A stretch of 61,672 nt of DNA. It comes from a virus. Made by a program: the position numbers and the translations under genes. The stretch is taken from IMG/VR virus record IMGVR_UViG_3300028027_000003, one strand, 5' to 3'. Below the pieces are notes generated by a model. The model was not told the DNA's origin and did not search any database. It saw only the letters and a list, made by a program, of their open reading frames with translations. Shown in pieces: positions 42,820 to 59,554 of the stretch (its first letter is position 1; each line of letters begins with the position of its first letter).

Positions 42820-42829
42820 GGAAACACAA

Positions 42830-43950: not shown

Positions 43951-46524
43951 ATGGGACCACTATCTGCTAAACAGCATAGAGAATACCTAAAGTTTGCCGC
44001 ACAAGAAGCCAGAGAAACATCTAAGATGGAACGAGAGGAATCTCGTAAGCAAGAATTACATGAATTAAAACTCATGGAAGCTGCTGGTAAAGCTAATCAA
44101 TCATTAGGCCATAAAGAACAAGTTCACGAATACAAGATGGGTACTATGAGTGCTCCATTAAGTAAAGTTAAAAAGCCTAACCCATTAGCTGGCGCTGGTT
44201 TATTTAGCCGTGGTCAACACATGCTGCCATACCAAGTGGAAGATGCTGCTAAGGCACGTAAAGCAGCTAAACAAACTACAGACACTATTCCCGCAATGTT
44301 AACTCCTGGGGAAGCAGTTATTCCTGAACCAGCTGCACAAGACCCTAAGAATAAACCTATCATTAAACAAATGGTACAAGAAGGTAGAAAAGCTAATCGC
44401 AGAAAACAACGTGGTTATCGTGATGGCTCAGTTAATATTGTTAACTCAGATGTTATTCCTACAAGAGTACAACAAGCTGCAGGCTATAATGAAGGTACTA
44501 TTCAAGTACCTGTACCCTCATTAGCATACGAGCATAGTGATGTTCCTGGCTCTTCATTTGAAGATGGTACTGAGAGAGTATATGATTTTAAAAGGGGTAG
44601 TTCTGCTGATTATCACTTTGAAGACGGTATTGAAGAAGTTCCTAATCCTATTCAGGCAGCTGTTGAAGCTAACAAATTAAGAATAGCAGAAGAAGTTCCA
44701 GCTCCTGCAGTAATACCTGTTGAACAACCAGCTTCTGTAGCAAGTAATGCTACGCCTGTAGCGCCTGAATTACAAGTTGATCCAATTCAAAACGCTGTTA
44801 AAGAAAATAATGCAAGAGTAATTTCTGAAAGAACAATTGAAGCAGTACCTGTTGTTGACCCTATTAATACTAATGTAGTTAATGCTATAACAACTAATAC
44901 GCCGCAAGTACCTCAAGCTCAAAATAGATTCCAAGCATTAGAACCAGTACCCGCTACTGCTGTTGCTGTAGGTGGTAATGAATCTACTGTTAATATTGAT
45001 GTACCTAAGCCTGTAACAGAAGGAATTGTTGCTCCTGATATCGTTCCTAAGCCTGTTCTTAAAGCTGAAGATGATGACACTAAACCTGAATATTGGATTA
45101 AACACTTAAGAGGCACTCAAGGAGATGTTGATAAAGCTATTGCTGGTAAAACAGATGAAGATGCTATTAAATCTCTTAAAGATGTTTTCACCTTAAAAGG
45201 TTTTAAAAGTATTTTAGGTTTAAATGATCAAGAACTAATGCGGTTAGCTGTTACTACTATTGGTGGTAGAGCTATGGGGTATGATACTGCAAAATCATTA
45301 TCATATGCTGGTAAACAAGCTTTTGATAGTTCTTTAAAACGTCAGGCTCAAGAGGCCCAAGATAAACGCCAAGATAAACAGCTTAAAGCTCAACAACAAC
45401 GTGATGATACTAGGTTTGCTATTACTATGGCTAGCCAATCCAAAGCAGAAAAGAAAGCTGAAGCTGATAGAGAGTTAACTACAAGAAGATTAGATTTAGC
45501 TGAAAGAAAAGCGGAAGCAGTAGAACTTGCAAGAGATGCTGACAGAAAGTTTCAACAACTTAAAGAAGATAATAAGTGGACTATTGAACAAAATAGAGCA
45601 GTTCAATCTAGACATCAACATCTTCAAGATAAATTCCAAACTCATTTAGCTATGGATGTTCCTAGTAACGTTAGAAAATCAGCTTTAGATATGGTTTATA
45701 AATCTAAAACACCTGAAGATTGGTTGTCTAATATGGAATCAGCTACTATTTTATTAGCAGCTAACACTCGCCATAAAGACCCTAATGCAGGAGCTAATAG
45801 CTATAAGCCTCATTGGTCAACTTATGTAATGGGTAACGGCGATACAATTCAAGCATCACGTAGACCTGATGGTAATTTAGATGTTGTTACTCCTAAAGGT
45901 GTTGTAGTTGCTCCCCCTAATTATGCTGTTAACTATGGTGAAAAGAAAGACAATGAAAACTCTGTTAGAGCTATTGTTGAAAACAGAGCTAAAGGTATTA
46001 AGGGACTTACCGAAGGTCAAGTAAGCAAAATGAAAGAAGATGCTGTGTTAATGTCTCAGCAATTCCAACATATTAATCCTACTCAATTTGCTTCTGCTTT
46101 AGAAAAGACATTTAGTAACCTTAAAGAGCAAGGCGAAGGTTTGTCTAGTGGTGCTTTTCAAAAAGCATTTACAACTACAGCCATTGTTGAGCTTAATCCC
46201 TCTTCTTCCCATTTATATAGTGGAACAGATAAAGAAGGTAAATTAGGTTATTTATCAGATAAAGCACAGATTGATATGGGTGATGCTTATCAAAAATTAT
46301 CTAAACAAAAAGGCAGTTTAGATAAAGCCGATTTAGATACCAAACAAAAATGGAATAGCTTATCCCAAGAACAAAGAGAAACTATGCACCGTATTGGTAG
46401 CAATGGTAAAGGCCAAGATGTTGGAACACGTAGAGAAGGTTATTCAGCATATAGCGAATTCGTTATTGAAATGGCTAAACCACCAGAGCAACGCAAATAT
46501 AAATGGTTGCAATCAATTAAATAA
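43951..46524 (+). CDS. Large internal virion protein (857 aa)
   Basis: Size, charged coiled-coil segments, MLTPGEAVIP motif common in phage internal/tape-measure-like proteins. Confidence 0.55.
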   Translation: MGPLSAKQHREYLKFAAQEARETSKMEREESRKQELHELKLMEAAGKANQSLGHKEQVHEYKMGTMSAPLSKVKKPNPLAGAGLFSRGQHMLPYQVEDAAKARKAAKQTTDTIPAMLTPGEAVIPEPAAQDPKNKPIIKQMVQEGRKANRRKQRGYRDGSVNIVNSDVIPTRVQQAAGYNEGTIQVPVPSLAYEHSDVPGSSFEDGTERVYDFKRGSSADYHFEDGIEEVPNPIQAAVEANKLRIAEEVPAPAVIPVEQPASVASNATPVAPELQVDPIQNAVKENNARVISERTIEAVPVVDPINTNVVNAITTNTPQVPQAQNRFQALEPVPATAVAVGGNESTVNIDVPKPVTEGIVAPDIVPKPVLKAEDDDTKPEYWIKHLRGTQGDVDKAIAGKTDEDAIKSLKDVFTLKGFKSILGLNDQELMRLAVTTIGGRAMGYDTAKSLSYAGKQAFDSSLKRQAQEAQDKRQDKQLKAQQQRDDTRFAITMASQSKAEKKAEADRELTTRRLDLAERKAEAVELARDADRKFQQLKEDNKWTIEQNRAVQSRHQHLQDKFQTHLAMDVPSNVRKSALDMVYKSKTPEDWLSNMESATILLAANTRHKDPNAGANSYKPHWSTYVMGNGDTIQASRRPDGNLDVVTPKGVVVAPPNYAVNYGEKKDNENSVRAIVENRAKGIKGLTEGQVSKMKEDAVLMSQQFQHINPTQFASALEKTFSNLKEQGEGLSSGAFQKAFTTTAIVELNPSSSHLYSGTDKEGKLGYLSDKAQIDMGDAYQKLSKQKGSLDKADLDTKQKWNSLSQEQRETMHRIGSNGKGQDVGTRREGYSAYSEFVIEMAKPPEQRKYKWLQSIK

Positions 46525-46541
46525 AATAAAGGAGTGAGTGT

Positions 46542-49500
46542 ATGAAACCAACTGACTTAGCACCAATAGAAGAAGATAGTAGTATACTCCCTCCAACCAA
46601 TGCAACTGCTAATTGGTTAGACCCTGATACTTTTAAATCTAAAACCACAGGTAAATCAAATCGTGTTCAAGGTTTAAATGCACCTGAAGTTAGTCATATT
46701 AAATCCGATAGAATAATTCCTGGACAATATCAAGGTGAATCTGCTTTAATACCTGAAGCAGCTCGTATATCTGGGTTTACTCAAGATGAAGTTGTGGGTA
46801 CTGACAAATATACACGAGATATTAATAAGGTTGTTAATCCAGCAACAGGTGAAAACTTAGGTAATTTTGCAACACGTACTGGATTAGTTGCTCCTAATCC
46901 TTTTACAAATGAAAAAGCAATATCAGATAAAAGTTATCTTAACGCATTTTCTACATTGTATCCTTCATTAGCTAGCCAAGATCCTGTGCTTGCTGCTGCA
47001 AAGGAATCTAAAAAAGCTAAACAAAAAGCCTTAGCACAACAAGGGTTACCTGAATACATCTTAGGTTTAAATGCCCCTAATGAAGCTGCATTTGCTTATC
47101 AAAAGAATGCTGTGGGTACTGGCGCTCAAACTAGAATCCTAGATAGGATGAAAGAGATTGATGCGGACTTAGCTACGTATGGTGGTTCCACTACCATATA
47201 CGACCCTATGACTGGTCTACCTCAAGGGGAAACTACTGCTGGTATTACAGACTCTCAAAGGGCTATGTTGCTTAAAGAAAAAGCACAATTATCTAATGAC
47301 CTTCAGTATGCTGCTATGGCTCCTGATGTATATACTGGTGTTGATGTAAGATCAAAAGACCGTACTATGATGAATAAATCCAAGAGTAATCTTGGAACTA
47401 TGTATGATAGTATGTGGTTAGGATTGTACGAAAACACTTATGGTCTTGGTCAATTAGCGGGTGATGTTACGGGATGGGAAGCTCTTAGTAAAGCTGCATC
47501 TAAAAATGTTAAGCTTAACCAAATGGAAAAAGGTAATTTACCTGAAGGACTTTCTTTTAAAGATGTCACTAACGCTAATAGTACTTGGGATACTATTTCT
47601 ACAGGTGCTTCATTTATTGGTGGTCAATTAATTAACTCATTACCTTATATTGCTGCCATTACTGGTGCTGAAATAGCTACTGCTGGTATGGCTAGTCCTC
47701 TTATTGCTGGAACATTAGCTACTATGCCTGTATCAGCAATGTATGCAGGTCAATTTTATGCTGAACAACCTGATAATAAAAAAGACCCTATGCTAGCGGT
47801 TATGACTGCTATTGGGTCAGGTGTGTTAGATAAGTTTGGTTTAGATATTGCTTTAGGTGCTAACTTATTTACTAAAGTAGGTGAAAAACAAGCTATTGAA
47901 GCTATGATACGTAATAGCGGTGGTGCTTTAGGAAAAGCAGAGGCAAGACATTTACTTCATACAGAAGCTAAAAGTGAAATTCTTAAACTAACAGGTTTTT
48001 CAAATGACTTTGCTATGAAACAAATTAAATCGGCTGAAGCTATTGCTAAACGAACAGCTGATTTAACCCTTAGAGCAAGTGCAGAATCAGGTACTGAAAC
48101 ATTACAACAAGAATTAGAAATGTTAGGCCAATCAGGCCAACGTAATTTAAATTATCGTTATACACCTGAATATAAACATCAGCTAATGGAAGCTGCGGGT
48201 GGTGGCTTTTTAGTTGGTGGTGCATTTGGTAGTGTTCATCATGGTATTGATATGGCAGGATGGCATGGCGCTGCTGACTTAATGGCTCTTAATGAAAAGA
48301 TGTTAGGTGATGCACAAAGATTTCAAGCAGAAAATGAATCAGCATTATTAAATGGTACTGGTGGTTATAGGACTGTTCAAGAGATGTCAAGATCTGAAAG
48401 TAGATCTGCACAACAAAGCAATTCTCCTGGATTAGATAGTATACCTACACATACAGGTTTCTTTAAAGAGACCCTTATTCCAATGTTAACTAGACCATTG
48501 TCTCATTTAAGACAGTTAGCTACTGATGCTATCCCATCTATTACAAATGAAGATGGTAGCTTTAAAACTAATTTAGCAAAAATTAAAGCTATTATGGGTG
48601 GCTATGGTATTCTTCCTGGAGAACATGCTTCAGGATTCAGACAAAGATTACTAGGTAAATGGACTGAGGGTATTTCTCTTGATGATTTAGCCGCTGACTT
48701 AGGTGTTAGTAGAGAAAAAGCTAAAGAATACGTTCAACACGCATTTGAAAATGTATGGAGCCAAGGTATAAAAGCTACTGGCGATATAGGTTATAAAATT
48801 CAAGCTTGGAAAGATAAGCTAGATATTGCTCATCAAAATATGATTGATTTAGGTAGAGTGGCGGGTGTAGATGTTACTTCTATTGATTCACCTAACGCAT
48901 TATTTAATGCTGCCGAAGTGGATCCTGCTCAATGGGCTGCTAATAAACTAAATATCTTAACTGAAATGGTTAATGCAGGAGCTGATCAAGGTTCTGCTAG
49001 AGCTGCAATTAATAACCTTACTTCTAAAAATAAACAAGAAGCTAATTTAGCAAGGGATTATTTAAATCAATACGGTTTATTTACTAATCCTAATTTAAGC
49101 CATTTGTTTAAACAAGGTGTCTTTGATAATATAGAACACCATAAAGACAGAATAGCTAATGCTATTATGGCTAATACTTATTTTGGAAAGAATGGTCAAG
49201 TCCTAGCTAAATTATTAAAACAAGCCTATGATAATAATGAGTTTGAAAATGAAGCTGACTACAAAAATACTGCAACTAAAGTAAAAGCTTTTTATGATAT
49301 TATGAATAATAATTATCATATGCCTAAAGAAGAAAGCTTATTACATAAAACAATAGGTTGGGCTACAACAATGTCTATGCTAGCTTATTTAGGTAAAGCA
49401 GCAGTATCATCTCAAGCAGAAGCTGCAATAGCATTATTAGGAACCCCTGGACATTTAATTAGCAAACAATTAGGTACATACTTTAAATCTTATTTTAAGG

Positions 49501-50780
49501 AAGCAAAAGCAGACATAAATATGGGTGTATCTTATGCAGCATCTCGTGCTGGTATTGATATGCTAAGATCAATTCCAAGTACTACGCTACAACAAAGGCT
49601 AGATGCTCTTGTTTCATTACAACAAAAACCTGGTTTATCTTTAAAAGAACATGAAGAGATTGAACAAGAAGTTAATCAATTAACTAAACAGTACTTTCAT
49701 GAAAGTTTAATATCTAGATTAGGATACACAGAAACAGGTGCTGGTGCAGCATTAAGATATGATTATGCTAATACATCTGCTGGTATTCAAAGAAAAGTTA
49801 TGGGTATATTTGCTAAGGCAATTTCTTTAAGAGCACAAACTGATGCTAATCGTATTGCTGTATTAACAGTAGGTTCAGATATTATGGCTACGCAACTAAG
49901 ATCGTTAGCTATGATTCCCGCTGCTAATAGAGCAGCTATGTTTGAATCTGGTATGGGTTTAACTAAAGAACAAGCACAATCTTTAACTGAGTTACAAGCT
50001 TATGGCTTAGATGTAAATGGCTTCTTAACCTTAATGGATAAAATGCCTGATTTAAATCCATTTTCTAATGACTTTATGAGCTTAGAAGCTAATAGTCCTG
50101 AAGCACAACACCTACAAGATAACGTAGCTACTGCCCTTGGCAATATGGTTGATTCAAGAATTGTTAACCCACAAGCGTTTAATACACCATTAATATTTAA
50201 CGACCCTAGATTTAGATTGTTAACCGCTATGGGTAGATTTATGGCTACAGCTCAAGCAGTTGTATTACCTAGATTGTATAAACAATATTTATTAGAAGGT
50301 AATATGGCTATGAAATACAGTGCATTTACTACTATAGGTATGGCTATTATTGCTGGTCAATTAGTTAATATGCTTAAGAACAGTTTGTCTTATGGTGATG
50401 ATGATAGTCCTTACGTTAAATCTTCTGTTAAGAAAGCACAAAGAGTTTTATATAGTTCTGGTTTATTAGGACAAGGTGAAAGATTGATTGAACAAATAAG
50501 TCCCTTATATGATTTCAATAGAGCACCTAACTTCTTTGATAAGACAACTGCTAAAGGGAAAGTTATTGAAGGTAAACCTGGAGAATGGGCTTATGAAAAA
50601 GTCAAAGGGTTATCTCCTCAAGCATCTTGGGCAGCTAGCGTAGGAGAAGGTATGTATAAATTAAGTGAGGGTAACACAGAAAAGGGTGTTAAACAACTTG
50701 CCAAAGCAGCACCTGTAATGGGTAGCTTCCCAATAACTCAGCAGGAGTTTGCTAACATGTTTAAGAAAGAAGGTAAATAA
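46542..50780 (+). CDS. Giant internal virion protein (1412 aa) with N-terminal staphylococcal-nuclease-like domain
   Basis: aa ~24-125: LDPDTFK, RVQGLNAPE, YQGESA, GTDKYTRD..TRTGLV align by eye with SNase IDGDTVK, RLLLVDTPE, YGPEAS, RTDKYGRG..VRQGLA. Confidence 0.6.
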   Translation: MKPTDLAPIEEDSSILPPTNATANWLDPDTFKSKTTGKSNRVQGLNAPEVSHIKSDRIIPGQYQGESALIPEAARISGFTQDEVVGTDKYTRDINKVVNPATGENLGNFATRTGLVAPNPFTNEKAISDKSYLNAFSTLYPSLASQDPVLAAAKESKKAKQKALAQQGLPEYILGLNAPNEAAFAYQKNAVGTGAQTRILDRMKEIDADLATYGGSTTIYDPMTGLPQGETTAGITDSQRAMLLKEKAQLSNDLQYAAMAPDVYTGVDVRSKDRTMMNKSKSNLGTMYDSMWLGLYENTYGLGQLAGDVTGWEALSKAASKNVKLNQMEKGNLPEGLSFKDVTNANSTWDTISTGASFIGGQLINSLPYIAAITGAEIATAGMASPLIAGTLATMPVSAMYAGQFYAEQPDNKKDPMLAVMTAIGSGVLDKFGLDIALGANLFTKVGEKQAIEAMIRNSGGALGKAEARHLLHTEAKSEILKLTGFSNDFAMKQIKSAEAIAKRTADLTLRASAESGTETLQQELEMLGQSGQRNLNYRYTPEYKHQLMEAAGGGFLVGGAFGSVHHGIDMAGWHGAADLMALNEKMLGDAQRFQAENESALLNGTGGYRTVQEMSRSESRSAQQSNSPGLDSIPTHTGFFKETLIPMLTRPLSHLRQLATDAIPSITNEDGSFKTNLAKIKAIMGGYGILPGEHASGFRQRLLGKWTEGISLDDLAADLGVSREKAKEYVQHAFENVWSQGIKATGDIGYKIQAWKDKLDIAHQNMIDLGRVAGVDVTSIDSPNALFNAAEVDPAQWAANKLNILTEMVNAGADQGSARAAINNLTSKNKQEANLARDYLNQYGLFTNPNLSHLFKQGVFDNIEHHKDRIANAIMANTYFGKNGQVLAKLLKQAYDNNEFENEADYKNTATKVKAFYDIMNNNYHMPKEESLLHKTIGWATTMSMLAYLGKAAVSSQAEAAIALLGTPGHLISKQLGTYFKSYFKEAKADINMGVSYAASRAGIDMLRSIPSTTLQQRLDALVSLQQKPGLSLKEHEEIEQEVNQLTKQYFHESLISRLGYTETGAGAALRYDYANTSAGIQRKVMGIFAKAISLRAQTDANRIAVLTVGSDIMATQLRSLAMIPAANRAAMFESGMGLTKEQAQSLTELQAYGLDVNGFLTLMDKMPDLNPFSNDFMSLEANSPEAQHLQDNVATALGNMVDSRIVNPQAFNTPLIFNDPRFRLLTAMGRFMATAQAVVLPRLYKQYLLEGNMAMKYSAFTTIGMAIIAGQLVNMLKNSLSYGDDDSPYVKSSVKKAQRVLYSSGLLGQGERLIEQISPLYDFNRAPNFFDKTTAKGKVIEGKPGEWAYEKVKGLSPQASWAASVGEGMYKLSEGNTEKGVKQLAKAAPVMGSFPITQQEFANMFKKEGK

Positions 50781-53700
50781 TGGTTGGAAAAGTTTCAACA
50801 CCATCTACAACCAATGTAAATGCTCCTATAGGCGGCAAACTATCGGTTCAAGATTTAATGAACCAAGCGGTAGATCGTTATGGTCAGGCATCTACCCCAG
50901 CAATTCCTGGATCAGAAGCTGCGGCTAAAGGTATTAGTGAATACAATCCTGTTCCCTTAGTCCCTTCACCATTACCAGCCCCTGGAATGAAAGGGGTTGT
51001 AGAGTCAAATAGAATTACCGCTGAGTCTTCTCCTCAAGCATTAGCAGATGTTACCCAGTCTCCTCTTGCTAGTATACCTAGAGTAGAACCTGTATTCAAT
51101 GAAAGAGGTATGGCGGTTATTGATCCTAATACTGGTGAGTATGCTACTCAACAAATCCCTATGGAAAGATTTGGTGAAGAGCAGGAAGCTCAATTAGATT
51201 CAGTACCTAACTTTGATCCTGCGTTAATGGAAGATAACTCTGTAGAAATGGCTAAGGCTATTCTAATTACTAACAACAAAGGCGACTTTGATGAAGTAAC
51301 TATTAGTAGGCTTGCTGATAAAATGGCTCCTACCCTACAGACAATAGCTAATAACACTGAACACGATTTGTTTAATCCAACAGAAGCTACTATTGGTAGT
51401 ACCCAACTAGGATATGAGAATGTTCCTGTAGGTATTCAAATACAACATCAATTTAATATTCCACAAGAACAAGTAAAACCATTATCAACTATTATGGGTA
51501 TTGCTCATGTGTTAGCAACTAATGAAACTAATCAGTTTAAAGAAAGCCCTAATACTGGTTACACAAAAGAAGATGGTTTAATCTTAGATTCTAGTGGCGC
51601 AGTAATTGAAGATGCCGTTCCTCAAGTTAATTTAATTAACTCAATGATTCATTCTGCTCAAAATGCTTTAGAAAGAGTTGGTATTGATCTACCAGTAGAG
51701 GCTGTAAGACAATTAGCAGAAGCTAAAGTACAAGCAGAAATCTATAATGGTAATCATCGTTTAATGCAAGATAAAAACGGTAGATGGGTTCTTGGTTCTA
51801 CTCCTAGAGTTAAAGACTATGCCAGAGAACTTAAGTATTTATCTGAAGCATTAGCAGGGGATATGCGTAGATCTCCCCCATCTAAAGTACCTCAATTATC
51901 AGGCTCTAACTTTTTAAAACCAGGAAGTCAAACTAGTAGAAATACTATGAAAGTTCCTGGGATGATTAGTAGAACAGCAGAAGTAGTTAAAGATATCTTT
52001 GGTTCTATAGCAGAAAAGTTTCAAAAGAAAAATGTTATATCTACCTATAAGCAACTTGAAGATATCCGAAACAATATGGTTGATGATGAGTCAGGTTACT
52101 ACTCTACTAGTGTGTTTGCTAAAAGACACAAAATGGATCAGGCAACATACAAGAACTTATTAGCTCGTGTATCTCCTCCTAAAGATTACGATAACAATAA
52201 ACCTGAAGACAGAAGTAAATTGTTTGATGCAAGAATTAGTCATGCAAGAGACCAAATGGATTCAAGAATGAAGGCTCTTGAAAACGATATCAAGAAAGCT
52301 TCTGGATTAAAGGGCTTGTTATATAGCGCATTCATTCATAGTAGTGCTAACCAACGTTTCTTTAGAAACAGTGATGGCACTGATATCATGGCTTCTAAAG
52401 GTGGTGTACGTGAGATGCTTAACTTTGGTGTACAAGGTCATGTTATCTCTACTTCATTATTTAATCCAACAAGGATTAAAGAACTACAACAAAGAGCTGA
52501 AGGTGTATTTAGTAAAGTAGGTCAGGCAAGACAAGATGAGCTAATGAAAATGACACCATTTGACAGAGCTACTCTAGGTCTTATGGAAATGGCTGTTGTT
52601 AACTATTACTCTTTTTCTGCTGATCCTTCTGTTCAAAAGAAAAATATTAAGAAGTATTCTGAGCTAGAATTAGTTCAGATGTATACTCCTGAAATAGGTC
52701 AACACTTAGCTTCGTTAGGTAAAGACTACAATGATTGGTTAAAAGGTGAACTACCTAATGACCATCCTTTTGTTGTAGATCAACTATCTAAAACACCTAG
52801 AGGGGAAGCGCAAGGGTTTCAAAACCTATGGGATGATATGTTCCAGCTAATGTCTGCTTCACTTAATCCTGCTGCAACTAGAACACCTGTAAGATTATCT
52901 GCATTAAATTTTGATGATGGTAATCAAAACGGTATCTTCTTACAAGCATTATATTCAGGTAATACTGACACAGCAACAAGGCTTGGTACATTTAACCCGT
53001 CATTAGCTGACATGCGTGGTCATGCTTTAAATATTATCTATGATCAATTAGATGAATTACTACCTGATCAAGAACAAAAGAAAGAAGCATGGGCTAAATT
53101 CTTTACAGAGGCATATAACAAATTACCTGATAAATTAGCTGCTGATTTATTCAAAGTACCTATGATGCAAAATTCTTATGGTAAAGATGCTGGTATGTTC
53201 TTTGAACATGTCAGGGAATTCTTAGAGGACTCTCAAGAGTATTCAACTATCTATAGTGATGTTATAGCTGAAGCATATAATAACGATATTAATGCAGCAT
53301 CATCTGATTTAGCAAATGCTATGGAAGCTACTTTAAGGAAGACTATTAATCCTAAGTTTGTTGAAGCTTTAAAACGAGTAGGTCGTATGTTTGCTATTAT
53401 GGATACCGTCCCTACTATCCTTGGTACTGCGGGAGATCATTGGGTATTTAGTTCTGTTGACTGTGGGTTTATACCTGATTACAGTAAAAATGCTATTAGC
53501 CAAGCAATAACTCCTGAAGGTCAAGAGTATGTTGAAAAAGTAATTGGTCAAACTACTACAGGTTATATGACACCTGCTGGTCGTGTTGAAGCACCAATGG
53601 CTAGACGAGGTTTAAATCCTAATGCTTCTAAGGGCATACAAAGATTCTTCAATAAGAAAACAAAAGTGTTTGATGTCTTTGAAAATGCAATTGGATCTGC

Positions 53701-54376
53701 TTTATCTAGACAAATGGGTGTTATGCCTATTCAATCTACTGATGGCGACTTGATTAAGCTTATGATGCTTGCTGTTAATTCTAAATTAAAATTACCTATG
53801 CCTGTGTTTACTGTGCATGATGCGTTAATTACTACAGCAGACTCTATGCACCTGTATCGTAATGCTTATAACAACATTGCTATACCACAAGCTATAGGCG
53901 AGATATCTAAATTTGGAATTAAATTAGATGAAGCTTATACTAAAGCTAAAGATAATTTGTTTAAAAAGTTATCAGGAGAACAATACATTGGTATTGGTGA
54001 GAATGGTGATTACCCTTCTCTTGGAGGTGTCTTTGATGAGATCTCTAAAAAGATAGATAGCCCAACTTATAAAGAAGTTTTCTTAAGACGATCACATAAT
54101 GATGAATCAAATTGGAATGATTATGTAGCTAAACAAAAAGAAATATTAAGGAGAGCTACAGAAGCAGGTTGGATTCAAGGTAAACCTAACTTAGCCGTTG
54201 ATGCTAAGTCATTCAGAGAATTATTTAATCTTTCTGAAGAAGTATTTGGTATGGGTGGATCCAATAATAAATTCAAACAATGGGTTAATAACTTTTCAAC
54301 TGATGTAGAACAAGGTTGGAAAGAGTTTAAACGTAATACTGGTAAAGCTGGTATAGCCCAAATGACTCATGCTTAA
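50780..54376 (+). CDS. 1198-aa protein with single-subunit RNA polymerase motifs (candidate virion RNAP)
   Basis: Ordered motifs SSANQRFFRNSDGTDIMASKG (T/DxxGR region), NFDDGNQNGIFLQAL (A), KVPMMQNSYG (B), FTVHDALI (C); last gene of the late arm. Confidence 0.6.
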   Translation: MVGKVSTPSTTNVNAPIGGKLSVQDLMNQAVDRYGQASTPAIPGSEAAAKGISEYNPVPLVPSPLPAPGMKGVVESNRITAESSPQALADVTQSPLASIPRVEPVFNERGMAVIDPNTGEYATQQIPMERFGEEQEAQLDSVPNFDPALMEDNSVEMAKAILITNNKGDFDEVTISRLADKMAPTLQTIANNTEHDLFNPTEATIGSTQLGYENVPVGIQIQHQFNIPQEQVKPLSTIMGIAHVLATNETNQFKESPNTGYTKEDGLILDSSGAVIEDAVPQVNLINSMIHSAQNALERVGIDLPVEAVRQLAEAKVQAEIYNGNHRLMQDKNGRWVLGSTPRVKDYARELKYLSEALAGDMRRSPPSKVPQLSGSNFLKPGSQTSRNTMKVPGMISRTAEVVKDIFGSIAEKFQKKNVISTYKQLEDIRNNMVDDESGYYSTSVFAKRHKMDQATYKNLLARVSPPKDYDNNKPEDRSKLFDARISHARDQMDSRMKALENDIKKASGLKGLLYSAFIHSSANQRFFRNSDGTDIMASKGGVREMLNFGVQGHVISTSLFNPTRIKELQQRAEGVFSKVGQARQDELMKMTPFDRATLGLMEMAVVNYYSFSADPSVQKKNIKKYSELELVQMYTPEIGQHLASLGKDYNDWLKGELPNDHPFVVDQLSKTPRGEAQGFQNLWDDMFQLMSASLNPAATRTPVRLSALNFDDGNQNGIFLQALYSGNTDTATRLGTFNPSLADMRGHALNIIYDQLDELLPDQEQKKEAWAKFFTEAYNKLPDKLAADLFKVPMMQNSYGKDAGMFFEHVREFLEDSQEYSTIYSDVIAEAYNNDINAASSDLANAMEATLRKTINPKFVEALKRVGRMFAIMDTVPTILGTAGDHWVFSSVDCGFIPDYSKNAISQAITPEGQEYVEKVIGQTTTGYMTPAGRVEAPMARRGLNPNASKGIQRFFNKKTKVFDVFENAIGSALSRQMGVMPIQSTDGDLIKLMMLAVNSKLKLPMPVFTVHDALITTADSMHLYRNAYNNIAIPQAIGEISKFGIKLDEAYTKAKDNLFKKLSGEQYIGIGENGDYPSLGGVFDEISKKIDSPTYKEVFLRRSHNDESNWNDYVAKQKEILRRATEAGWIQGKPNLAVDAKSFRELFNLSEEVFGMGGSNNKFKQWVNNFSTDVEQGWKEFKRNTGKAGIAQMTHA

Positions 54377-54382
54377 TTAAAT

Positions 54383-54430
54383 AAAAAACCCCTCAAGGAG
54401 TAATCCTTAAGGGGTTATTTTTTTTTATTT
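54383..54430. terminator. Bidirectional hairpin terminator at the convergence of the two arms
   Basis: aaaaaa-cccctcaagga-gtaa-tccttaagggg-ttattttttttt; A-run and T-run flank the stem. Confidence 0.8.
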
Positions 54431-54685
54431 CTTTGTAAGCTCTTTAATTTGTTTACGAGTATCATTAGCAAGTTTATCTGCTTTAGACAAAGCATTTTCA
54501 GGAGAATAACCTTTAGTAAGGTATCCTTCATAATTTTCTCGATGCATCTTTTTAATTGCTGCTTCATTAATTGCAGGTGTACCCGCTAAATTAGGGTCTA
54601 ATCCCAAACTTTCACACACATCAGCATCAGAGGTTTCTGTATCACCTCTTAAAGCAAAGATGTTATAGTTTTTATATTCATTCAT
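54425..54685 (-). CDS. Hypothetical protein
   Basis: ORF track; last gene of the minus arm. Confidence 0.5.
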   Translation of the reverse strand: MNEYKNYNIFALRGDTETSDADVCESLGLDPNLAGTPAINEAAIKKMHRENYEGYLTKGYSPENALSKADKLANDTRKQIKELTKK

Positions 54686-55161
54686 TTAAAACTCTTTCCA
54701 ATAGTTGCTTTGACTTTCCAATGAAGTTTATTTAAGTCTCTTAGGTAATCACCAATATAAGTATTTAATCCACCATAACCAGCTTCTTCAGATACTTCAA
54801 ATAAACCTTGAGCATTTTGTATTAAGATTTCAAAGTCATTACATAACTCAGTAAACATAGTCTTGCTTGACTCGCCTAATTTATTACACTCAACAATCTC
54901 AGTAATATCTAAGATAGCTTTAAGAGAAGGTAATGCTGGCTTATCTAGCTGACGTAGCTGTTCACCTAAAGAATCATGTTGTGCCCATAAAAAATCATAA
55001 ATCTCGTTTAATAGCTCATGATCTTGAACAAAAGTTGGTCCTTCAACATTGAAATGATAGCCATGAGACTTGTAATATACAGTAAAGTTATCTGCAAAAA
55101 GATTTCGTAATGGTACTAATACTGTTGCAAGACTAGATACCGATAGCGGGGGTGTTGCCAT
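54682..55161 (-). CDS. Dps/ferritin-like protein
   Basis: YYKSHGYHFNVEGPTFVQDHELLNEIY..HDSLGEQLRQL parallels the Dps pattern Y.K..NFHW.V.G..F...H..F.E.Y...D..AERI; likely start MATPPLS at 55161. Confidence 0.7.
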   Translation of the reverse strand: MATPPLSVSSLATVLVPLRNLFADNFTVYYKSHGYHFNVEGPTFVQDHELLNEIYDFLWAQHDSLGEQLRQLDKPALPSLKAILDITEIVECNKLGESSKTMFTELCNDFEILIQNAQGLFEVSEEAGYGGLNTYIGDYLRDLNKLHWKVKATIGKSFK

Positions 55162-55264
55162 TAGGTTGTTCCTTAGTTGGTTGTTTCTTTTTACCAAAGA
55201 TTTGATCGTAGTTATCTTTGTATTTTTGTTCGTCAGTAGGTCTACGACCGCTACCCTTACCCAT
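55133..55264 (-). CDS. Small basic protein (43 aa, below cutoff)
   Basis: Hand translation MGKGSGRRPTDEQKYKDNYDQIFGKKKQ...; G-x-GRRP..KY..NYD.IFG pattern recalled from many phages. Confidence 0.5.
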   Translation of the reverse strand: MGKGSGRRPTDEQKYKDNYDQIFGKKKQPTKEQPNGNTPAIGI

Positions 55265-55502
55265 TAGCTTCTTCCCATTCATTAAAAACAGGGGAGTCTT
55301 CTACAAAATCTAAATGAGTACCTGCTGGAGGATAATAACCCATAGCACGTAAGAATCGTTCAAACTGTTCTACTACCTCAGAGATGTGTACATGGGCAGA
55401 CATCTCCATACGAGTTGCTAAATGTGGTGTGGTGTATTTAGATTCAAAGACAATAACATCTTTGTTCTCACACATATCTTCAATATCATACTCATTAATC
55501 AT
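55257..55502 (-). CDS. Hypothetical protein
   Basis: ORF track. Confidence 0.5.
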   Translation of the reverse strand: MINEYDIEDMCENKDVIVFESKYTTPHLATRMEMSAHVHISEVVEQFERFLRAMGYYPPAGTHLDFVEDSPVFNEWEEANG

Positions 55503-55833
55503 TTAACAATTCCTCTAGTGTTACTGTTTTATTTGCTAACTTACGTTCTTTGTTTTGTTCTGTTTTCCTTTTATTAAATTCAGGAAAGTGTTTTTCCATA
55601 AGGCTACGATAAGCAGATAATTCTTCAATAAGAATACTGATCTTACCAAGCTTATTTGCAAAGTCTTTAGAATCAAATACATGAAAGTCTAAATTAATAT
55701 TCCTATTACAATCAGAAATAATGATATCACCACCCATAGACCATGACCCAGACTGAAAGTCAGTTTGAATAGCAGCTAATCCTTCTTTTTTATTTAAGAA
55801 CTTACGAGTAGTACGTTGGAAATCTTTTTTCAT
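55495..55833 (-). CDS. Hypothetical protein
   Basis: ORF track. Confidence 0.5.
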   Translation of the reverse strand: MKKDFQRTTRKFLNKKEGLAAIQTDFQSGSWSMGGDIIISDCNRNINLDFHVFDSKDFANKLGKISILIEELSAYRSLMEKHFPEFNKRKTEQNKERKLANKTVTLEELLND

Positions 55834-55834
55834 A

Positions 55835-56188
55835 TTACGTTAATACCTTCATAGATTTAACAATAGCACAGAAAATATAATCTTTAGCTTTTTGTTCTAC
55901 AGGTAATTCATCATAAGGTACCATACAAGGGTGCTTTTTATTCTCAACATCTTTAACTTCACCGTATAACCAACCATCTAATTCTTTTTCTTGATACCAA
56001 GAATTATGGCTAGCTTCAGGACCAGCATTATGATTATTGTAATGGAATACAACTCCATTGTACGCCGATTGTTTCTGCCAATCAGGTGCTTCTTCCCATG
56101 ATAATTGGGAATCATCTCCTAAAGATAAACAGTAAGCACGATTAGCTTCATGACATACTTTAGCAATGTTTTCTAATGTTGGTTTCAT
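55835..56188 (-). CDS. RyR-domain-like protein
   Basis: CHEANRAYC..SWEEAPDWQK..GWLYGEVKDVENKKHPCMVPYDELPVEQKAKD resembles the RyR domain pattern (HE.W...GW.YG.....K.HP.LVPY.ELP...K). Confidence 0.55.
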   Translation of the reverse strand: MKPTLENIAKVCHEANRAYCLSLGDDSQLSWEEAPDWQKQSAYNGVVFHYNNHNAGPEASHNSWYQEKELDGWLYGEVKDVENKKHPCMVPYDELPVEQKAKDYIFCAIVKSMKVLT

Positions 56189-56203
56189 TTGTGTCCTTAA
56201 TTA

Positions 56204-56278
56204 TGGTAGGTCATACAGGAATCGAACCTGTATTGATGGCTTAGAAGGCCATTGTTCTGTCCATTGAACTAATGACCT
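56204..56278 (-). tRNA. trnR(UCU): tRNA-Arg (anticodon UCU), CCA encoded
   Basis: Hand-folded cloverleaf: acceptor AGGTCAT/ATGACCT, anticodon arm ATGGC-CTTCTAA-GCCAT, T arm ACAGG-TTCGATT-CCTGT. Confidence 0.85.
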
Positions 56279-56283
56279 ATGTA

Positions 56284-56370
56284 TGGTGGATTTTCTAGGA
56301 GTCGAACCTAGTTGCCCCTAAGGGCTACAGATTTACAGTCTGCTGCAGTCGCCAATGCTGCTCAAAATCC
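56284..56370 (-). tRNA. trnY(GUA): tRNA-Tyr (anticodon GUA), long variable arm, CCA encoded
   Basis: Acceptor GGATTTT/AAAATCC, loop CTGTAAA, 87 nt with a class II extra arm, T arm CTAGG-TTCGACT-CCTAG. Confidence 0.85.
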
Positions 56371-56673
56371 TTGTTGTTTAGTTGTTGGTGGCTCCAATTT
56401 GCCTTGCCCCGCTAAGGTAAGCACACGCAGAGTCTTGTCTCAACCAAGGATTGCGTTTCCTTTGGCATAGCCACAGCGTCCTGTAGCGTTACGAACTTCA
56501 CACCAACACGGCTGGGGACTGTTCAGGTGGTCTAGGGCTTCTTCTCTCCCCACCTACGGCGTAGCATCCTTTCGGTCTAGCCCTCAGCCGCAATCCCCAT
56601 GCGTCTTGATGTTAAAGAAACACCCCCATAAAGAGGGTGTCGGGCCACAGATACGATCTTGTGGGGAATTAAA
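56371..56673 (-). ncRNA. Unclassified ~300-nt GC-rich structured RNA embedded in the tRNA array
   Basis: No ORF; GC far above genome; multiple hairpins and an 8-bp long-range pairing (56448-56455 with 56589-56596); co-oriented with the tRNAs downstream of the promoter at 56937. Confidence 0.5.
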
Positions 56674-56748
56674 TGGTTGCGGAGGAAGGATTCGCACCTT
56701 CGACTTCTGGATTATGAGTCCAGCACTCTACTACTGAGCTACTCCGCT
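56674..56748 (-). tRNA. trnM(CAU): tRNA with CAU anticodon (Met, fMet or Ile2), A1xA72 mismatch
   Basis: Anticodon arm CTGGA-CTCATAA-TCCAG, T arm GAAGG-TGCGAAT-CCTTC, CCA encoded. Confidence 0.8.
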
Positions 56749-56756
56749 ATATTCAT

Positions 56757-56831
56757 TGGTTGCGGAAACTGGATTCGAACCAGTAACCAAGGGATTATGA
56801 GTCCCCTGCTCTACCTTTAAGCTATCCCGCA
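56757..56831 (-). tRNA. trnM(CAU): Second, different tRNA with CAU anticodon
   Basis: Acceptor TGCGGGA/TTCCGCA, anticodon arm GGGGA-CTCATAA-TCCCT, T arm ACTGG-TTCGAAT-CCAGT, CCA encoded. Confidence 0.8.
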
Positions 56832-56839
56832 TTATGCAT

Positions 56840-56912
56840 TGGGTACTCGGTAATGGATTTAAACCATTATCTCTCAATTAATCGTTGATTGCTTTACTTA
56901 AGCTAACCGAGC
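56840..56912 (-). tRNA. Degenerate tRNA-like element (cloverleaf folds, non-canonical loops)
   Basis: Acceptor GCTCGGT/ACCGAGT, T arm AATGG-TTTAAAT-CCATT, anticodon loop CGATTAA with G33; anticodon assignment unreliable. Confidence 0.35.
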
Positions 56913-56915
56913 TTG

Positions 56916-56937
56916 TTCTCTATTAGGGGACGTCTGT
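56916..56937 (-). promoter_or_regulatory. Phage RNAP promoter candidate driving the tRNA/ncRNA array
   Basis: Minus strand reads ACAGACGTCCCCTAATAGAGAA; overlaps the thioredoxin stop codon. Confidence 0.65.
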
Positions 56938-57192
56938 ACTTGTAATAAAAATATCTAACTCCTGTAATGAAATAGAACCATTAATCTTTCTGATCATATT
57001 ATCATTGTCATCGGTCAATACAAACGTAGGTACAGTCTTGATACCGTATAGTGCAGCCTTATCTGGATCTTTATGAGCATTAATATTATTTAATACAACA
57101 CCATAGTCCAACATAAAGTCTACGTCTTTAATTCGTTCTGACATTTGTTTACAAGGAACACAAGTGTCAGTATAAAATTTATATAAGTTCAT
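56923..57192 (-). CDS. Thioredoxin-like protein
   Basis: CVPC active site in FYTDTCVPCKQM and cis-Pro motif KTVPTFVL. Confidence 0.8.
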   Translation of the reverse strand: MNLYKFYTDTCVPCKQMSERIKDVDFMLDYGVVLNNINAHKDPDKAALYGIKTVPTFVLTDDNDNMIRKINGSISLQELDIFITSTDVP

Positions 57193-57607
57193 TTTTTGTT
57201 GGTATTAAAAACCATTCTCCATTTGTTTTATATTCTGAAAATATTTCATGATATGTAGATTCCATATAGCCTTCATTAATACCTTCATACAACACATGTA
57301 AAGGATAAGGATTAGACACTTCTAAATTTTTTAATCTGTCTGCTAAATTATCTGTAGAACCTATTTTAACATATTCTCCACAACCAATCATATACAAATG
57401 ATTTTTTGATTGAGCATCTAAACCTTTACGTCCATTAATTCTAGTAGCACAAGATTTACATTGAGTAGATTTACCTGTTCTTAAGTTAGAATCTTTTACA
57501 ATACCCTCTTTACCGCAATCACAAATACACTTGTACTTTGAATTATAATTCTTTGTTTTAGAATCAAATTCAAGTACAAGCCACTTATTAAACCTCTGAC
57601 CAATCAT
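57179..57607 (-). CDS. Homing-endonuclease-like protein (N-terminal Cys-rich DNA-binding region plus T5orf172/GIY-YIG-like domain)
   Basis: CICDCG..CKSC then HLYMIGCGEYVKIGSTDNLADRLKNLEVSNPYPL..GEWF; the ORF track start (57694) overlaps RNR, ATG MIGQRF at 57607 has AGGAGG. Confidence 0.65.
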   Translation of the reverse strand: MIGQRFNKWLVLEFDSKTKNYNSKYKCICDCGKEGIVKDSNLRTGKSTQCKSCATRINGRKGLDAQSKNHLYMIGCGEYVKIGSTDNLADRLKNLEVSNPYPLHVLYEGINEGYMESTYHEIFSEYKTNGEWFLIPTKNELI

Positions 57608-57617
57608 AATAGTTACC

Positions 57618-57639: not shown

Positions 57640-57650
57640 CAGTAGTTGAG

Positions 57651-59525: not shown

Positions 59526-59554
59526 GATTTCCTTGTATTATTATGGGTGTTGTT

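Follow-up and report, generated by a model that had tools for sequence, protein, structure and literature searches.

Does the last gene of a marine phage's structural arm encode a second RNA polymerase, and could that enzyme travel in the virion as the virion RNA polymerase (vRNAP) of phage N4 does? The gene lies in IMG/VR record IMGVR_UViG_3300028027_000003, a stretch of 61,672 nucleotides that we call the window. The original prediction proposed such a polymerase from four short motifs in a 1198-aa open reading frame.

A cryptic gene at the end of the structural arm

The predicted open reading frame is present at its proposed position and begins with ATG. The ORF map also agrees that no gene follows it in the plus-strand arm and that two large genes come before it. 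At the junction with the preceding gene, TAA and ATG share one base (TAATG, 50778-50782).

50780..54376, plus strand: predicted cryptic single-subunit RNA polymerase gene, vRNAP-like (ORF, hhalign, AF2 model, Foldseek)
46542..50780, plus strand: 1412-aa protein, conserved partner and putative ejection or membrane protein (synteny, NTD-module matches)
43951..46524, plus strand: 857-aa protein, variable, candidate large virion or ejection protein (synteny, orthologue domain)
54387..54416, no strand: strong GC-rich hairpin with T runs on both strands, directly 3' of the polymerase gene, a putative bidirectional terminator between the converging arms (13-bp stem, terminator scan)

Searches of Pfam, PHROGs and PDB sequences with the 1198-aa protein gave no significant match. 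PHROGs returned nothing, phrog_2206 included, and neither did PF00940. The sole Pfam match is to DNA_pol_A (E 0.0032, aa 974-1022), and its 16.9 bits are below the Pfam threshold of 34.3 bits. HMM searches of the protein family against PDB sequences were not significant either; the only polymerase among the weak matches was 6dt7_B, the gp16 chain of N4 RNAPII. Judged by its sequence, the 1198-aa RNAP is a distinct, deeply diverged clade that ordinary searches miss.

Fold

Profile-profile comparison with hhalign places the family among the single-subunit RNAPs. The family profile (95 sequences) matches a 9-sequence profile of N4-like vRNAP Pol domains with probability 95.3, P 2e-8 and score 85.3; positions 93-1161 align to mini-vRNAP 52-1101, which leaves little of either protein uncovered. 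The comparison with a T7-like profile of 10 sequences gave P 1.2e-5 and a score of 59.6 (175-1074 on T7 74-874, colinear). These significant, colinear alignments extend over about 700-880 columns. Reversed and column-shuffled targets reached scores of 13-18 (P 0.5-0.96), which excludes chance, and the known N4-T7 pair scores 93 by the same method.

The AlphaFold (AF2) model of the protein is confident (pLDDT 89.3, pTM 0.89), and its best 50 PDB matches in Foldseek are single-subunit RNAPs without exception (E 8e-15 to 3e-10). Among them are yeast mtRNAP (E 8e-15), T7 RNAP (E 2.3e-12, TMt up to 0.53) and N4 vRNAP (E 1.9e-10 and 3e-10). In BFVD, T7-like RNAPs and N4-like vRNAP segments come out on top, and DNA polymerases enter the list only at rank 49 (E 2.7e-4). 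Profile and structure comparisons hence both bear out the polymerase assignment, and each catalytic residue named at the outset falls on a T7 and an N4 equivalent. By homology and fold, the 1198-aa protein is almost certainly a single-subunit RNAP of the T7/mitochondrial/N4 right-hand superfamily.

Catalytic motifs and their conservation

52340..52411, plus strand: T/DxxGR-type motif region, aa 521-544, SSANQR526FF...K540..R544 (conservation, hhalign map)
52904..52933, plus strand: motif A, aa 709-718, LNFDD713GNQNG718 (conservation, hhalign, DSSP)
53141..53185, plus strand: motif B / O-helix, aa 788-802, ADLFK792VPMM796QNSY800GK (conservation, hhalign, helix 786-799)
53729..53836, plus strand: palm helix and motif C, aa 984-1019, IQSTD988GD ... 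TVH1013D1014ALITT (conservation, hhalign, DSSP)

All four motifs of the original prediction are found at the positions it gave: SSANQRFFRNSDGTDIMASKG (aa 521-541), NFDDGNQNGIFLQAL (aa 710-724), KVPMMQNSYG (aa 792-801) and FTVHDALI (aa 1010-1017). Their key residues are kept across 95 full-length relatives (15-80% identity), so these are not chance matches. In the T/DxxGR region, R526 and R544 are present in all 95 sequences and K540 in 80. The hhalign residue map equates R526 with T7 R425 and N4 R424, and K540/R544 with N4 K437/R440. The replacement of G by Q in this motif is not shared by the whole family: at position 525, 35/95 have Q and 27/95 have G, and many members thus have the canonical G-R.

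In the model, the strand of motif A (709-714) has the catalytic Asp at its end, and a helix comes next (717-726; DSSP). The original prediction had named D712 and D713 together as residues to substitute. D713 is invariant (95/95) and equivalent to T7 D537 and N4 D559, whereas D712 is variable, with Asp in only 29 of the 95. G718 occupies the motif-A +5 position of T7 G542, and N4 also has Gly there. Pol I has its steric-gate Glu at this position. About a third of the family (E at 711 in 29/95) has the ExDGxxxG form of motif A that is typical of N4 (PMC10654107).

In motif B, position 792 is K or R in every sequence and Y800 is kept in 94/95; K792 corresponds to T7 K631 and N4 K670, M796 to T7 M635, and Y800 to T7 Y639 and N4 Y678. 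Motif C folds in the model as beta-turn-beta with HD at the turn (strands 1009-1012 and 1015-1019). D1014 is invariant (95/95) and H1013 nearly so (91/95); the pair aligns with T7 H811/D812, and D1014 with N4 D951. D988, which is T7 D787 and N4 D929, is invariant as well in a 43-sequence alignment. Of the predicted motif spacings, about 80 aa from A to B is accurate (D713-K792, 79 aa), and about 214 aa from B to C becomes 222 aa (K792-D1014). On these residues, the protein is very probably an active DNA-dependent RNA polymerase.

Family and genomic context

Clustering at 50% identity divides the family into 131 clusters, and its sampled members come from CRP-7-type marine podoviruses of ~60 kb. 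The gene stands last in the structural arm of 40/40 IMG/VR loci, and three distant genomes and the isolate CRP-7 have it at this position too. Two large protein genes precede it at each locus examined, and a T7-like RNAP gene faces it wherever the flanks are long enough. The proposed likeness to the N4 gene order holds too, since gp50 closes the late block of N4 behind gp52 and gp51, both ejection proteins (PMC13434306).

An orthologue of the 1412-aa protein is found in all loci with enough upstream flank and in the distant genomes. This family has a ~250-aa module in common with the N-terminal domain (NTD) of N4-type vRNAP. Five of 24 orthologues match phrog_2206 'virion RNA polymerase' at profile positions 208-471 (best E 1.4e-8, others to under 1e-2), a stretch that maps inside the NTD of N4 gp50, and hhalign pairs aa 460-566 of the family with N4 330-443 (P=0.005). 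The window's own copy has no direct match to phrog_2206.

No domain was detected in a search of the window's 857-aa protein. The p857 HMM matches a distant orthologue, an 818-aa protein of L059 (E 3.8e-20), that carries Pfam SLT (lytic transglycosylase) and the PHROG annotation 'internal virion protein with endolysin domain'. SLT or lysozyme domains are present on proteins upstream of the RNAP gene in some relatives, and such domains are typical of ejected internal virion proteins. The 1198-aa RNAP also diverges at the rate of its structural neighbours: the L025 orthologue is 49% identical, compared to 88-90% for RNAP and RNR. The conserved position, the SLT/lysozyme partners and the N4-NTD-like module next door strengthen the case for a candidate virion RNAP. 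A profile of the C-terminal domain (CTD) of N4 vRNAP, which N4 needs for encapsidation (PMC13492108), has no similarity to the 1198-aa protein in hhalign.

Transcription signals and a possible role

59574..61672, continuing at 127..229, minus strand: conventional T7-like RNAP gene, 733 aa (Pfam RNA_pol 2.1e-56, phrog_414 8e-96)
37288..37297, plus strand: promoter-like copy of CCCCTAATAG, the nearest upstream of the 1198-aa RNAP gene (motif scan)
17234..17276, minus strand: conserved ~43-nt element, copy 1, candidate early promoter (repeat; ~30 nt upstream of the small ORF start 17211)
17614..17656, minus strand: conserved ~43-nt element, copy 2 (~30 nt upstream of the minus-strand ORF start 17593)

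That the 1198-aa protein would be a second polymerase follows from a conventional RNAP at 59574..229, and Pfam RNA_pol (2e-56) confirms this gene. Bases 61547-61672 recur as 1-126 (a 126-nt overlap), so that the gene runs across the junction of the window ends, and relatives have 733-aa orthologues. Its position is far down the early/middle arm, with CCCCTAATAG sites ahead of it. This motif occurs in seven exact copies, each oriented with the local genes, and has the extended consensus agt(t/a)gtCCCCTAATAGaga. With up to one mismatch there are 11 matches, compared to 3.0 expected, and none of 100 shuffles reaches 11. The copy at 37288..37297 is a putative T7-like-RNAP promoter for the distal late operon, including the 1198-aa RNAP gene. 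Between this site and the gene, 10 terminators were counted (10.4 expected), none stronger than in shuffled sequence, and a strong one comes after the gene.

The region 14745-18500 contains no CCCCTAATAG motif; there, the two ~43-nt elements precede the early ORFs. The element is kept in IMG/VR relatives, and two of these have it twice, at a spacing of ~380-400 nt. The arrangement in CRP-7 is alike: no related motif comes before AGTCCCCTATTA at 2017-2044. The original prediction spoke of hairpin elements at 17243-18046, but the repeated elements near 17.2-17.7 kb do not form stable hairpins (z -0.3 to -1.1), which leaves N4-style hairpin promoters unsupported.

The genomic context suggests that the 1198-aa protein is probably a virion-packaged early RNA polymerase. 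The polymerase would be produced late from the final structural-operon cistron, its translation coupled to that of the 1412-aa protein. Capsids would then take it up along with the two large proteins encoded just before it, which would act as ejection or internal proteins, and it would be ejected into the host together with the DNA. There it would transcribe the first, promoter-distinct early gene block at the start of the minus-strand arm, and the 733-aa T7-like RNAP would take over later from CCCCTAATAG promoters. Early transcription could also be performed by the host RNAP. Catalytic activity, packaging, ejection and target genes are what we infer for this enzyme.

Alternative explanations

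One could also argue that the polymerase is active but unpackaged, serving inside the cell as a second enzyme for a particular gene class (e.g., very late genes) or for replication priming. An RNAP fold with its catalytic residues fits this reading, the protein has no homologue of the N4 encapsidation domain, and there are phages with several intracellular RNAPs, N4 RNAPII being one such enzyme. However, the gene is the last structural-operon cistron, coupled to a conserved large virion-type protein, and an enzyme required for late genes would from this position be made only alongside them. Invariant synteny with SLT-/lysozyme-bearing proteins and the NTD-like protein, and divergence as fast as that of the structural neighbours, also make a purely intracellular role possible but unlikely.

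It is improbable that we are looking at an ejection or structural protein with an RNAP-derived fold that is mainly mechanical (e.g., part of a trans-envelope channel, or a DNA-pulling motor), with RNA synthesis not its biological output, or that is catalytically dead. The gene does sit among ejection-type protein genes, the sequence has diverged far past HMM-to-sequence detection, and the ejectosome of N4 includes its vRNAP, which couples transcription to DNA entry (PMC13434306, PMC13492108). Yet the two Asp residues, Lys/Arg and Tyr of motif B, the Arg of T/DxxGR and the His before the Asp of motif C are (near-)invariant in 95 sequences, and such conservation of catalytic and NTP-binding residues is not expected of a purely structural relic. 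A DNA motor driven by transcription, moreover, would still be an active RNAP.

A family-A DNA polymerase, another nucleotidyl transferase or chance motif matches can safely be dismissed: the sub-threshold DNA_pol_A match falls on palm motif C, common to Pol A and T7-type RNAPs, the Foldseek E-values of RNAPs are ~10 orders of magnitude better than that of the top-ranked DNA polymerase, the T/DxxGR-type motif, G718 and M796 are RNAP-like, and the genome encodes a separate Pol A, along with a primase-helicase and an exonuclease.

Comparison with known polymerases

T7 and mitochondrial RNAPs (PF00940; PDB 3e3j, 8dh0, 8c5u, 3spa) are the closest structures (E 8e-15 to 1e-10), with a TM that reaches 0.53 when normalised to T7. 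T7 R425, D537, K631, M635, Y639, D787, H811 and D812 are each matched in the 1198-aa profile. The protein is ~315 aa longer than T7 RNAP, with a ~90-aa beta-rich insertion between motifs B and C (strands 879-967) and a ~110-aa additional helical C-terminal extension that ends in a conserved GIAQMTHA. The gene belongs to the structural module and not to the early/replication genes, and a true T7-like RNAP is encoded alongside it in one genome.

The sole cultured relative is Roseobacter phage CRP-7, whose gp33 (MK613349, 'hypothetical protein', 1235 aa) is an orthologue (tblastn E 6e-10; hhalign probability 98.3; 22.6% identity). It retains the four motifs, catalytic residues included. Its gene comes after gp35 and gp34 and faces the T7-like RNAP gene gp30, with the small gp31 and gp32 between them. 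The CRP-7 paper does not discuss gp33 as a polymerase (PMC6918029). The 1198-aa polymerase is previously unrecognised, and gp33 is unannotated in the CRP-7 record.

N4 gp50 (Schitoviridae) is the closest parallel by profile. Its Pol domain, 'mini-vRNAP' (PDB 2po4, 9pnq; 1106 aa compared to 1198 aa here), has the right-hand single-subunit fold in common with the family and is its best profile-profile match, and all catalytic motifs align, the K540/R544 pair included. Both polymerases are encoded by the last late structural gene, after ejection proteins, and both phages encode a second, T7-like RNAP, which is one 733-aa chain here and a gp15/gp16 heterodimer in N4. The differences lie in the architecture. 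The polymerase is free-standing here, whereas N4 has it embedded as the middle domain in a polyprotein of ~3500 aa, about three times the size. The NTD-like module resides in the separate 1412-aa protein instead of within gp50, a counterpart of the N4 CTD is lacking, and stable hairpin promoters were not detected. With ~61.5 kb, the genome is smaller than those of N4-like phages (70-78 kb). BLASTP detects no similarity between the other structural genes of the window and N4-like proteins, and apart from CRP-7 the nearest portal relatives among the matches listed are ~44-50-kb phages of Photobacterium and Pseudomonas. Reference N4-like phage vRNAPs measure 2842-3820 aa, and a survey of N4-like viruses left out vRNAP-like matches below 2500 aa (PMC10654107). 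If our reading is true, this phage would follow the N4 strategy with a free-standing ~1.2-kaa polymerase and the NTD-like module in a separate upstream protein.

Results

The polymerase gene and its family

The original prediction held that the late arm of this phage ends in a cryptic single-subunit RNA polymerase (RNAP). The reading frame is present on the plus strand at 50780..54376 (ATG start, 1198 aa), and the four motif strings read from it lie at the residues named. The label "cryptic" is also accurate, since searches of Pfam, PHROGs and PDB sequences give no significant match, so that standard annotation fails on this gene. Pfam reports nothing but DNA_pol_A, below threshold (E 0.0032; 16.9 bits vs a 34.3-bit cut-off; aa 974-1022), and PF00940 (RNA_pol) does not match at E up to 1, short of its gathering threshold. 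PHROGs contain no match of any kind, phrog_2206 ('virion RNA polymerase') included, and PDB sequences yield nothing significant with phmmer or hmmsearch. Against single T7 and N4 sequences, neither BLASTP nor a shallow 10-sequence profile gives a signal.

A word-indexed search finds nine close homologues (49-79% identity), all metagenomic, and seeding the search with a deep alignment returns the same 10 proteins. An exhaustive profile search brings the family to 131 cluster representatives at 50% identity (E up to 1e-3), 62 of them at E up to 1e-30; lengths are mostly 1150-1480 aa. The sole cultured relative is the Roseobacter phage CRP-7 (MK613349). Its gp33, a 1235-aa 'hypothetical protein', is 22.6% identical to the polymerase over aa 486-1088 and keeps all four motifs. 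The CRP-7 paper names only the T7-like RNAP as a polymerase (PMC6918029), and we found no prior description of the family in the literature searched.

Genome layout and neighbouring genes

Bases 1-126 of the window are identical to 61547-61672, which leaves 61,546 bp of unique sequence in a complete assembly that is closed into a circle (or terminally redundant). Features of the late arm and the T7-like RNAP gene are listed below.

18590, plus strand: terminase gene
43951..46524, plus strand: 857-aa protein
46542..50780, plus strand: 1412-aa protein
50780..54376, plus strand: polymerase, its ATG overlapping the upstream TAA (TAATG)
54387-54416: bidirectional terminator with a 13-bp stem, downstream of the polymerase gene
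59574..61672, minus strand, continuing at 127..229: T7-like RNAP

The conventional T7-like RNAP claimed at 59574 exists; its gene spans the join of the window and encodes 733 aa, not the 625 aa given by the ORF finder. The plus-strand arm runs from terminase through portal, scaffold, capsid, tail-fibre paralogues and several small proteins to the large proteins, and ends with the 857-aa protein, the 1412-aa protein and the polymerase. This confirms the polymerase as the last late-arm gene, in a position like that of gp50, the virion RNAP (vRNAP) of N4. The minus-strand arm (RNR, T7-like RNAP and replication genes) converges on the terminator 3' of the polymerase.

The same layout recurs wherever flanks are long enough to compare: in 40 IMG/VR loci on contigs of up to 58-64 kb, in three distant members (15-18% identity, 59-60.5-kb contigs) and in CRP-7, where gp35-gp34-gp33 face the T7-like RNAP gp30. 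A profile of the 1412-aa family finds all distant orthologues of that protein at E below 1e-90. At such a place, cell-wall-degrading domains in large proteins are characteristic of ejected internal virion proteins (compare T7 gp16-type proteins). We detected no lytic domain in the 857-aa protein of the window. Its family is homologous to an 818-aa protein of a distant relative (L059:3282-5738) that carries an SLT transglycosylase domain, also matches the PHROG 'internal virion protein with endolysin domain' and lies upstream of the 1412-aa orthologue. In the same block of a second distant relative (L063:483-3617) there is a 1044-aa lysozyme-domain protein, further upstream of the 1412-aa orthologue.

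In related loci the polymerase and its two large neighbours have diverged much more rapidly than the replication genes. In one such locus, L025, identity to the window copies is 49% for the polymerase and 42% for the 1412-aa protein, and 88-90% for the T7-like RNAP and RNR. This mosaic divergence recurs in L024, L028 and others (42-49% for polymerase and 1412-aa protein, 88-90% for RNR and T7-like RNAP). Such sequence divergence points to an ejection module that evolves fast or is exchanged.

Two neighbourhoods deserve separate mention. Just downstream of the polymerase, on the minus strand at 54682-55197, a precomputed Pfam annotation from an identical contig with the same polymerase records Ferritin (PF00210); ferritin-like genes are uncommon among phage auxiliary genes. 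At 29684-33518 lie three consecutive tail-fibre-like genes (397, 368 and 512 aa) whose C-terminal PHROG families are common to all three, so they are apparently paralogous receptor-binding proteins.

Relationship to T7 and N4 polymerases

The original prediction proposed profile-profile comparison as a check, and with hhalign it gives a significant, single colinear alignment to both N4-like and T7-like profiles. The query was a 95-sequence profile of the polymerase family and the targets were profiles of 9 N4-like vRNAP Pol domains and 10 T7-like RNAPs. Against the N4-like profile the probability is 95.3, P 2e-8 and the score 85.3 (query 93-1161 vs 52-1101 of mini-vRNAP, the N4 Pol domain). 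Against the T7-like profile the values are 81.4, 1.2e-5 and 59.6 (query 175-1074 vs T7 74-874). Reversed or column-shuffled targets score 13-18 (P 0.5-0.96), and the known N4-T7 pair reaches a score of 93 (P 1e-9) by the same procedure. Given a family-N4 score this close to the N4-T7 score and this far from the controls, profile evidence ties the family to N4 vRNAP about as firmly as it ties N4 vRNAP to T7 RNAP.

Single sequences carry less signal. The family HMM is non-significant against single RNAP sequences, and its local alignments nonetheless fall on the right motifs, as they do with the T7-like RNAP of the window, CRP-7 gp30 and the N4 RNAPII chain 6dt7_B. Even the N4 mini-vRNAP matches the T7-like phrog_414 no better than E 5e-6.

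Residues paired in the colinear hhalign alignment (polymerase; T7 RNAP; N4 mini-vRNAP)
R526; R425; R424
D713; D537; D559
G718; G542; G564
K792; K631; K670
M796; M635; –
Y800-G801; Y639-G640; Y678-G679
D988; D787; D929
H1013-D1014; H811-D812; F950-D951

The catalytic Asp residues of motifs A and C (D713 and D1014) thus occupy superfamily-equivalent positions. Of motif B (K/R-x3-K-x7-YG, on the O-helix), K792 and Y800-G801 align. For the T/DxxGR motif it is the invariant R526 that aligns to T7 R425 and N4 R424; the T/D position itself is unaligned.

Conservation was counted in an alignment of 95 full-length family members. R526, R544, D713 and D1014 are invariant, and position 792 is K or R in all 95. 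Y800 is kept in 94, H1013 in 91 and Q716 in 88. Within a 43-sequence subset (15-52% identity to the window protein), the sole invariant columns besides the initiator are R526, R544, D713, Y800, D988 and D1014. Two details of the original prediction do not survive these counts. It had listed D712 together with D713 for substitution; D712 is D in only 29 of the 95 members, so the catalytic Asp is D713. Nor is Q instead of G a family trait, since position 525 is Q (as in the window protein) in 35 members and G in 27. Position 788 in motif B is K in 61 members and A in the window protein.

Predicted structure

Structure prediction bears out the assignment, giving a confident model with the right-hand fold of a Pol-A-like single-subunit RNAP. 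An AlphaFold (AF2) model built from the 43-sequence alignment reaches pLDDT 89.3 and pTM 0.89, with disorder at residues 1-40 and 253-276 only. An earlier model from 10 close homologues had pLDDT 55 and, as its best Foldseek match, T7 RNAP at E 0.04. With the deeper model, Foldseek finds 72 PDB matches at E up to 1e-3. The best 50 (E 8e-15 to 3e-10) are all single-subunit RNAPs with probability 1.00: yeast mitochondrial RNAP leads (8e-15), T7 RNAP follows at 2.3e-12 (TM up to 0.53 normalised to T7), and human POLRMT and the N4 vRNAP Pol domain (9pnq, 1.9e-10; 2po4, 3e-10) are among them. T7-like RNAPs and N4-like vRNAP segments also dominate the matches to predicted viral structures (BFVD).

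In the model, D713 stands at the end of the motif A strand (709-714), with a helix next at 717-726. Motif B is the O-helix (786-799), ending at Y800, and motif C is a beta-turn-beta with strands 1009-1012 and 1015-1019 and H1013-D1014 at the turn. This predicted secondary structure fits the logic of palm and fingers, and we infer that the catalytic residues cluster in space.

One could also argue that the gene encodes a family A DNA polymerase (PF00476), the only family that Pfam reports. That match (16.9 vs 34.3 bits) covers the motif C region only, and the first DNA polymerase in the BFVD list appears at rank 49 (E 2.7e-4). The motif A +5 position argues against it too: it is Gly (G718), as in T7 and N4, and Pol I has its steric-gate Glu there. 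Marks of the RNAP type are the T/DxxGR-type motif, a superfamily-specific RNAP motif here with an invariant Arg, and a Met at the position of T7 M635. The phage encodes its own family-A DNA polymerase separately, at 3149..5008, alongside a primase-helicase (239..1843) and a 5'-3' exonuclease. By fold and motifs, not by Pfam threshold, the polymerase belongs to the T7/N4/mitochondrial RNAP superfamily. The alignments and the predicted model together show a T7/N4-type RNAP that is conserved and structurally confident, and whose active site, judged by conservation, appears intact.

Promoter-like elements and repeats

Two kinds of repeated element are candidates for promoters.

6654, 14174, 14735, 18560, 37288, 56920, 57621: exact copies of the motif CCCCTAATAG
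59560: copy of CCCCTAATAG with one mismatch
17234-17276 and 17614-17656: 43-nt element (…CTTGGTAC[CT]TACCCCAAGTGGTCTCAC…), each copy preceding a small minus-strand ORF start by about 30 nt

All seven exact copies of CCCCTAATAG are intergenic and oriented with the local genes; copy 18560 precedes the terminase gene and copy 37288 lies within the late arm. Allowing up to one mismatch gives 11 matches where 3.0 are expected, and none of 100 shuffles reaches 11. The extended consensus is agt(t/a)gtCCCCTAATAGaga, and CRP-7 has a related motif, AGTCCCCTATTAAAAGG, at 2017-2044 and 7138-7165 of its locus (L001). These sites are probably promoters of the T7-like RNAP.

No CCCCTAATAG motif occurs between about 14745 and 18500, where the minus-strand arm begins and five small ORFs lie. 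The 43-nt element lies in this region. It is kept in four IMG/VR relatives (L064, L065, L067 and L068), and in L065 and L068 two copies stand about 380-400 nt apart. Could these be N4-style hairpin promoters? N4 early promoters are DNA hairpins with a 5-7-bp stem and a 3-nt loop; the 43-nt element offers a potential 6-bp stem with an 8-nt loop. Because this hairpin is no more stable than those of shuffles (z -0.3 to -1.1), we do not call the repeats at 17.2-17.7 kb hairpin promoters of the N4 type. The element is instead a candidate early promoter that either the virion polymerase or host RNAP would read.

Two further repeats lie nearby. At 18013-18058, between two minus-strand small ORFs and near the divergence point of both arms, there is a long imperfect inverted repeat (20-nt arms, 6 nt between) with a folding energy of -10.9 kcal/mol (z -3.9); none of 200 shuffles folds as well. 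A terminator, an origin and a regulatory site are possible functions. The stretch 18089-18457 is A/C/G-rich, T-poor and repetitive; CAGCAGCACGA and GAAGACAGAGACACAG are examples of its units. A minus-strand ORF of 155 aa (18035..18502), without a Pfam match, encloses the stretch, which may be a real low-complexity protein or else non-coding repeats next to the terminase promoter.

Link to the N4 polyprotein

The N4 virion RNAP gp50 combines NTD, Pol and CTD in one chain. When gp50 is scanned against phrog_2206, a 3406-position profile, its NTD falls on positions 5-912 and its Pol domain on positions 904-2001. Among 24 orthologues of the 1412-aa protein, five match phrog_2206 (best E 1.4e-8), and the three matches that we inspected cover the same stretch, protein aa ~331-598 vs profile 208-471. 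A 9-sequence NTD HMM is too weak a profile and does not detect the module in the 1412-aa family. With hhalign, the 24-sequence family alignment gives a modest P of 0.005 against the 9-sequence NTD profile; the aligned regions, aa 460-566 and N4 330-443, take in a hydrophobic segment rich in Gly. Support for an NTD module emerged only after distant orthologues and PHROG scans were added. The polymerase family itself gives P 0.56 and 0.45 against N4 NTD and CTD profiles.

The order of the 1412-aa protein and the polymerase is colinear with NTD and Pol in gp50. Together with the phrog_2206 matches to the NTD part, this gene order suggests, with moderate confidence, that the two proteins are an unfused or split vRNAP. 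A split of the whole of gp50 into three genes does not fit, as the 857-aa, 1412-aa and 223-aa families show no similarity to the N4 CTD or to gp51-gp55. That the phage is a small Schitovirus is also unconvincing, given that its portal and capsid lack convincing BLASTP similarity to N4 gp59 and gp56.

Discussion

The packaging of T7-type RNAPs in virions counts as a hallmark of the Schitoviridae, and such RNAPs are taken to be giant (~3500-aa) proteins. Here the polymerase is the terminal gene of the virion/ejection block in a lineage whose phages encode a T7-like RNAP as well. The polymerase would be packaged with both large upstream proteins and ejected into the host. There it would transcribe the early block, and the T7-like RNAP would act after it. 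It is quite possible, if somewhat short of probable, that the giant vRNAP of N4 exists unfused in CRP-7-type marine podoviruses, with the 1412-aa protein as membrane/injection module and the polymerase as a separate ~1.2-kaa protein immediately downstream.

If this is true, a free-standing enzyme enters the virion and then the host without the help of any N4-type CTD, and it would be the smallest autonomous virion RNAP of the N4 type. It would read a new, non-hairpin early promoter, the conserved two-copy element at 17.2-17.7 kb, before a handover to the T7-like RNAP. A phage of about 61 kb could in this way run its transcription without host RNAP. The arrangement would also connect T7-like and N4-like phages, either as an intermediate in evolution or as the product of a fission. 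The likely homology of the 1412-aa gene to the NTD module offers a concrete hypothesis, open to testing, of how fusion of genes produced the N4 polyprotein or of how that polyprotein can be split.

The family also marks an annotation blind spot, since Pfam, PHROGs and PDB sequence searches all miss it. In one survey of N4-like viruses, vRNAP-like matches below 2500 aa were discarded (PMC10654107). The marine phage group that carries the family is reported to be widespread and abundant in ocean viromes, and one of its members is a phage of the Roseobacter RCA lineage (PMC6918029). This 1.2-kaa autonomous enzyme is a tractable system, with CRP-7 gp33 as its cultured representative. It could address how an RNAP is packaged and passes through a podovirus tail without the NTD and CTD of N4, and which promoters such enzymes read. 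For biotechnology, the polymerase is a candidate new orthogonal single-subunit RNAP.

How does the polymerase compare with its best-known counterpart? N4 gp50 is a single NTD-Pol-CTD chain of ~2800-3800 aa (reference N4-like vRNAPs have 2842-3820 aa; PMC10654107), whereas the polymerase is free-standing. It falls outside the architectural definition of an N4 vRNAP, with 1198 aa, no CTD and no phrog_2206 match. Like the N4 mini-vRNAP, it has a homologous Pol domain (hhalign P 2e-8; Foldseek ~2e-10). Like gp50, it is the last late structural gene after ejection-type proteins, in the window, the 40 loci, the distant genomes and CRP-7. By analogy, it would also work like the N4 vRNAP.
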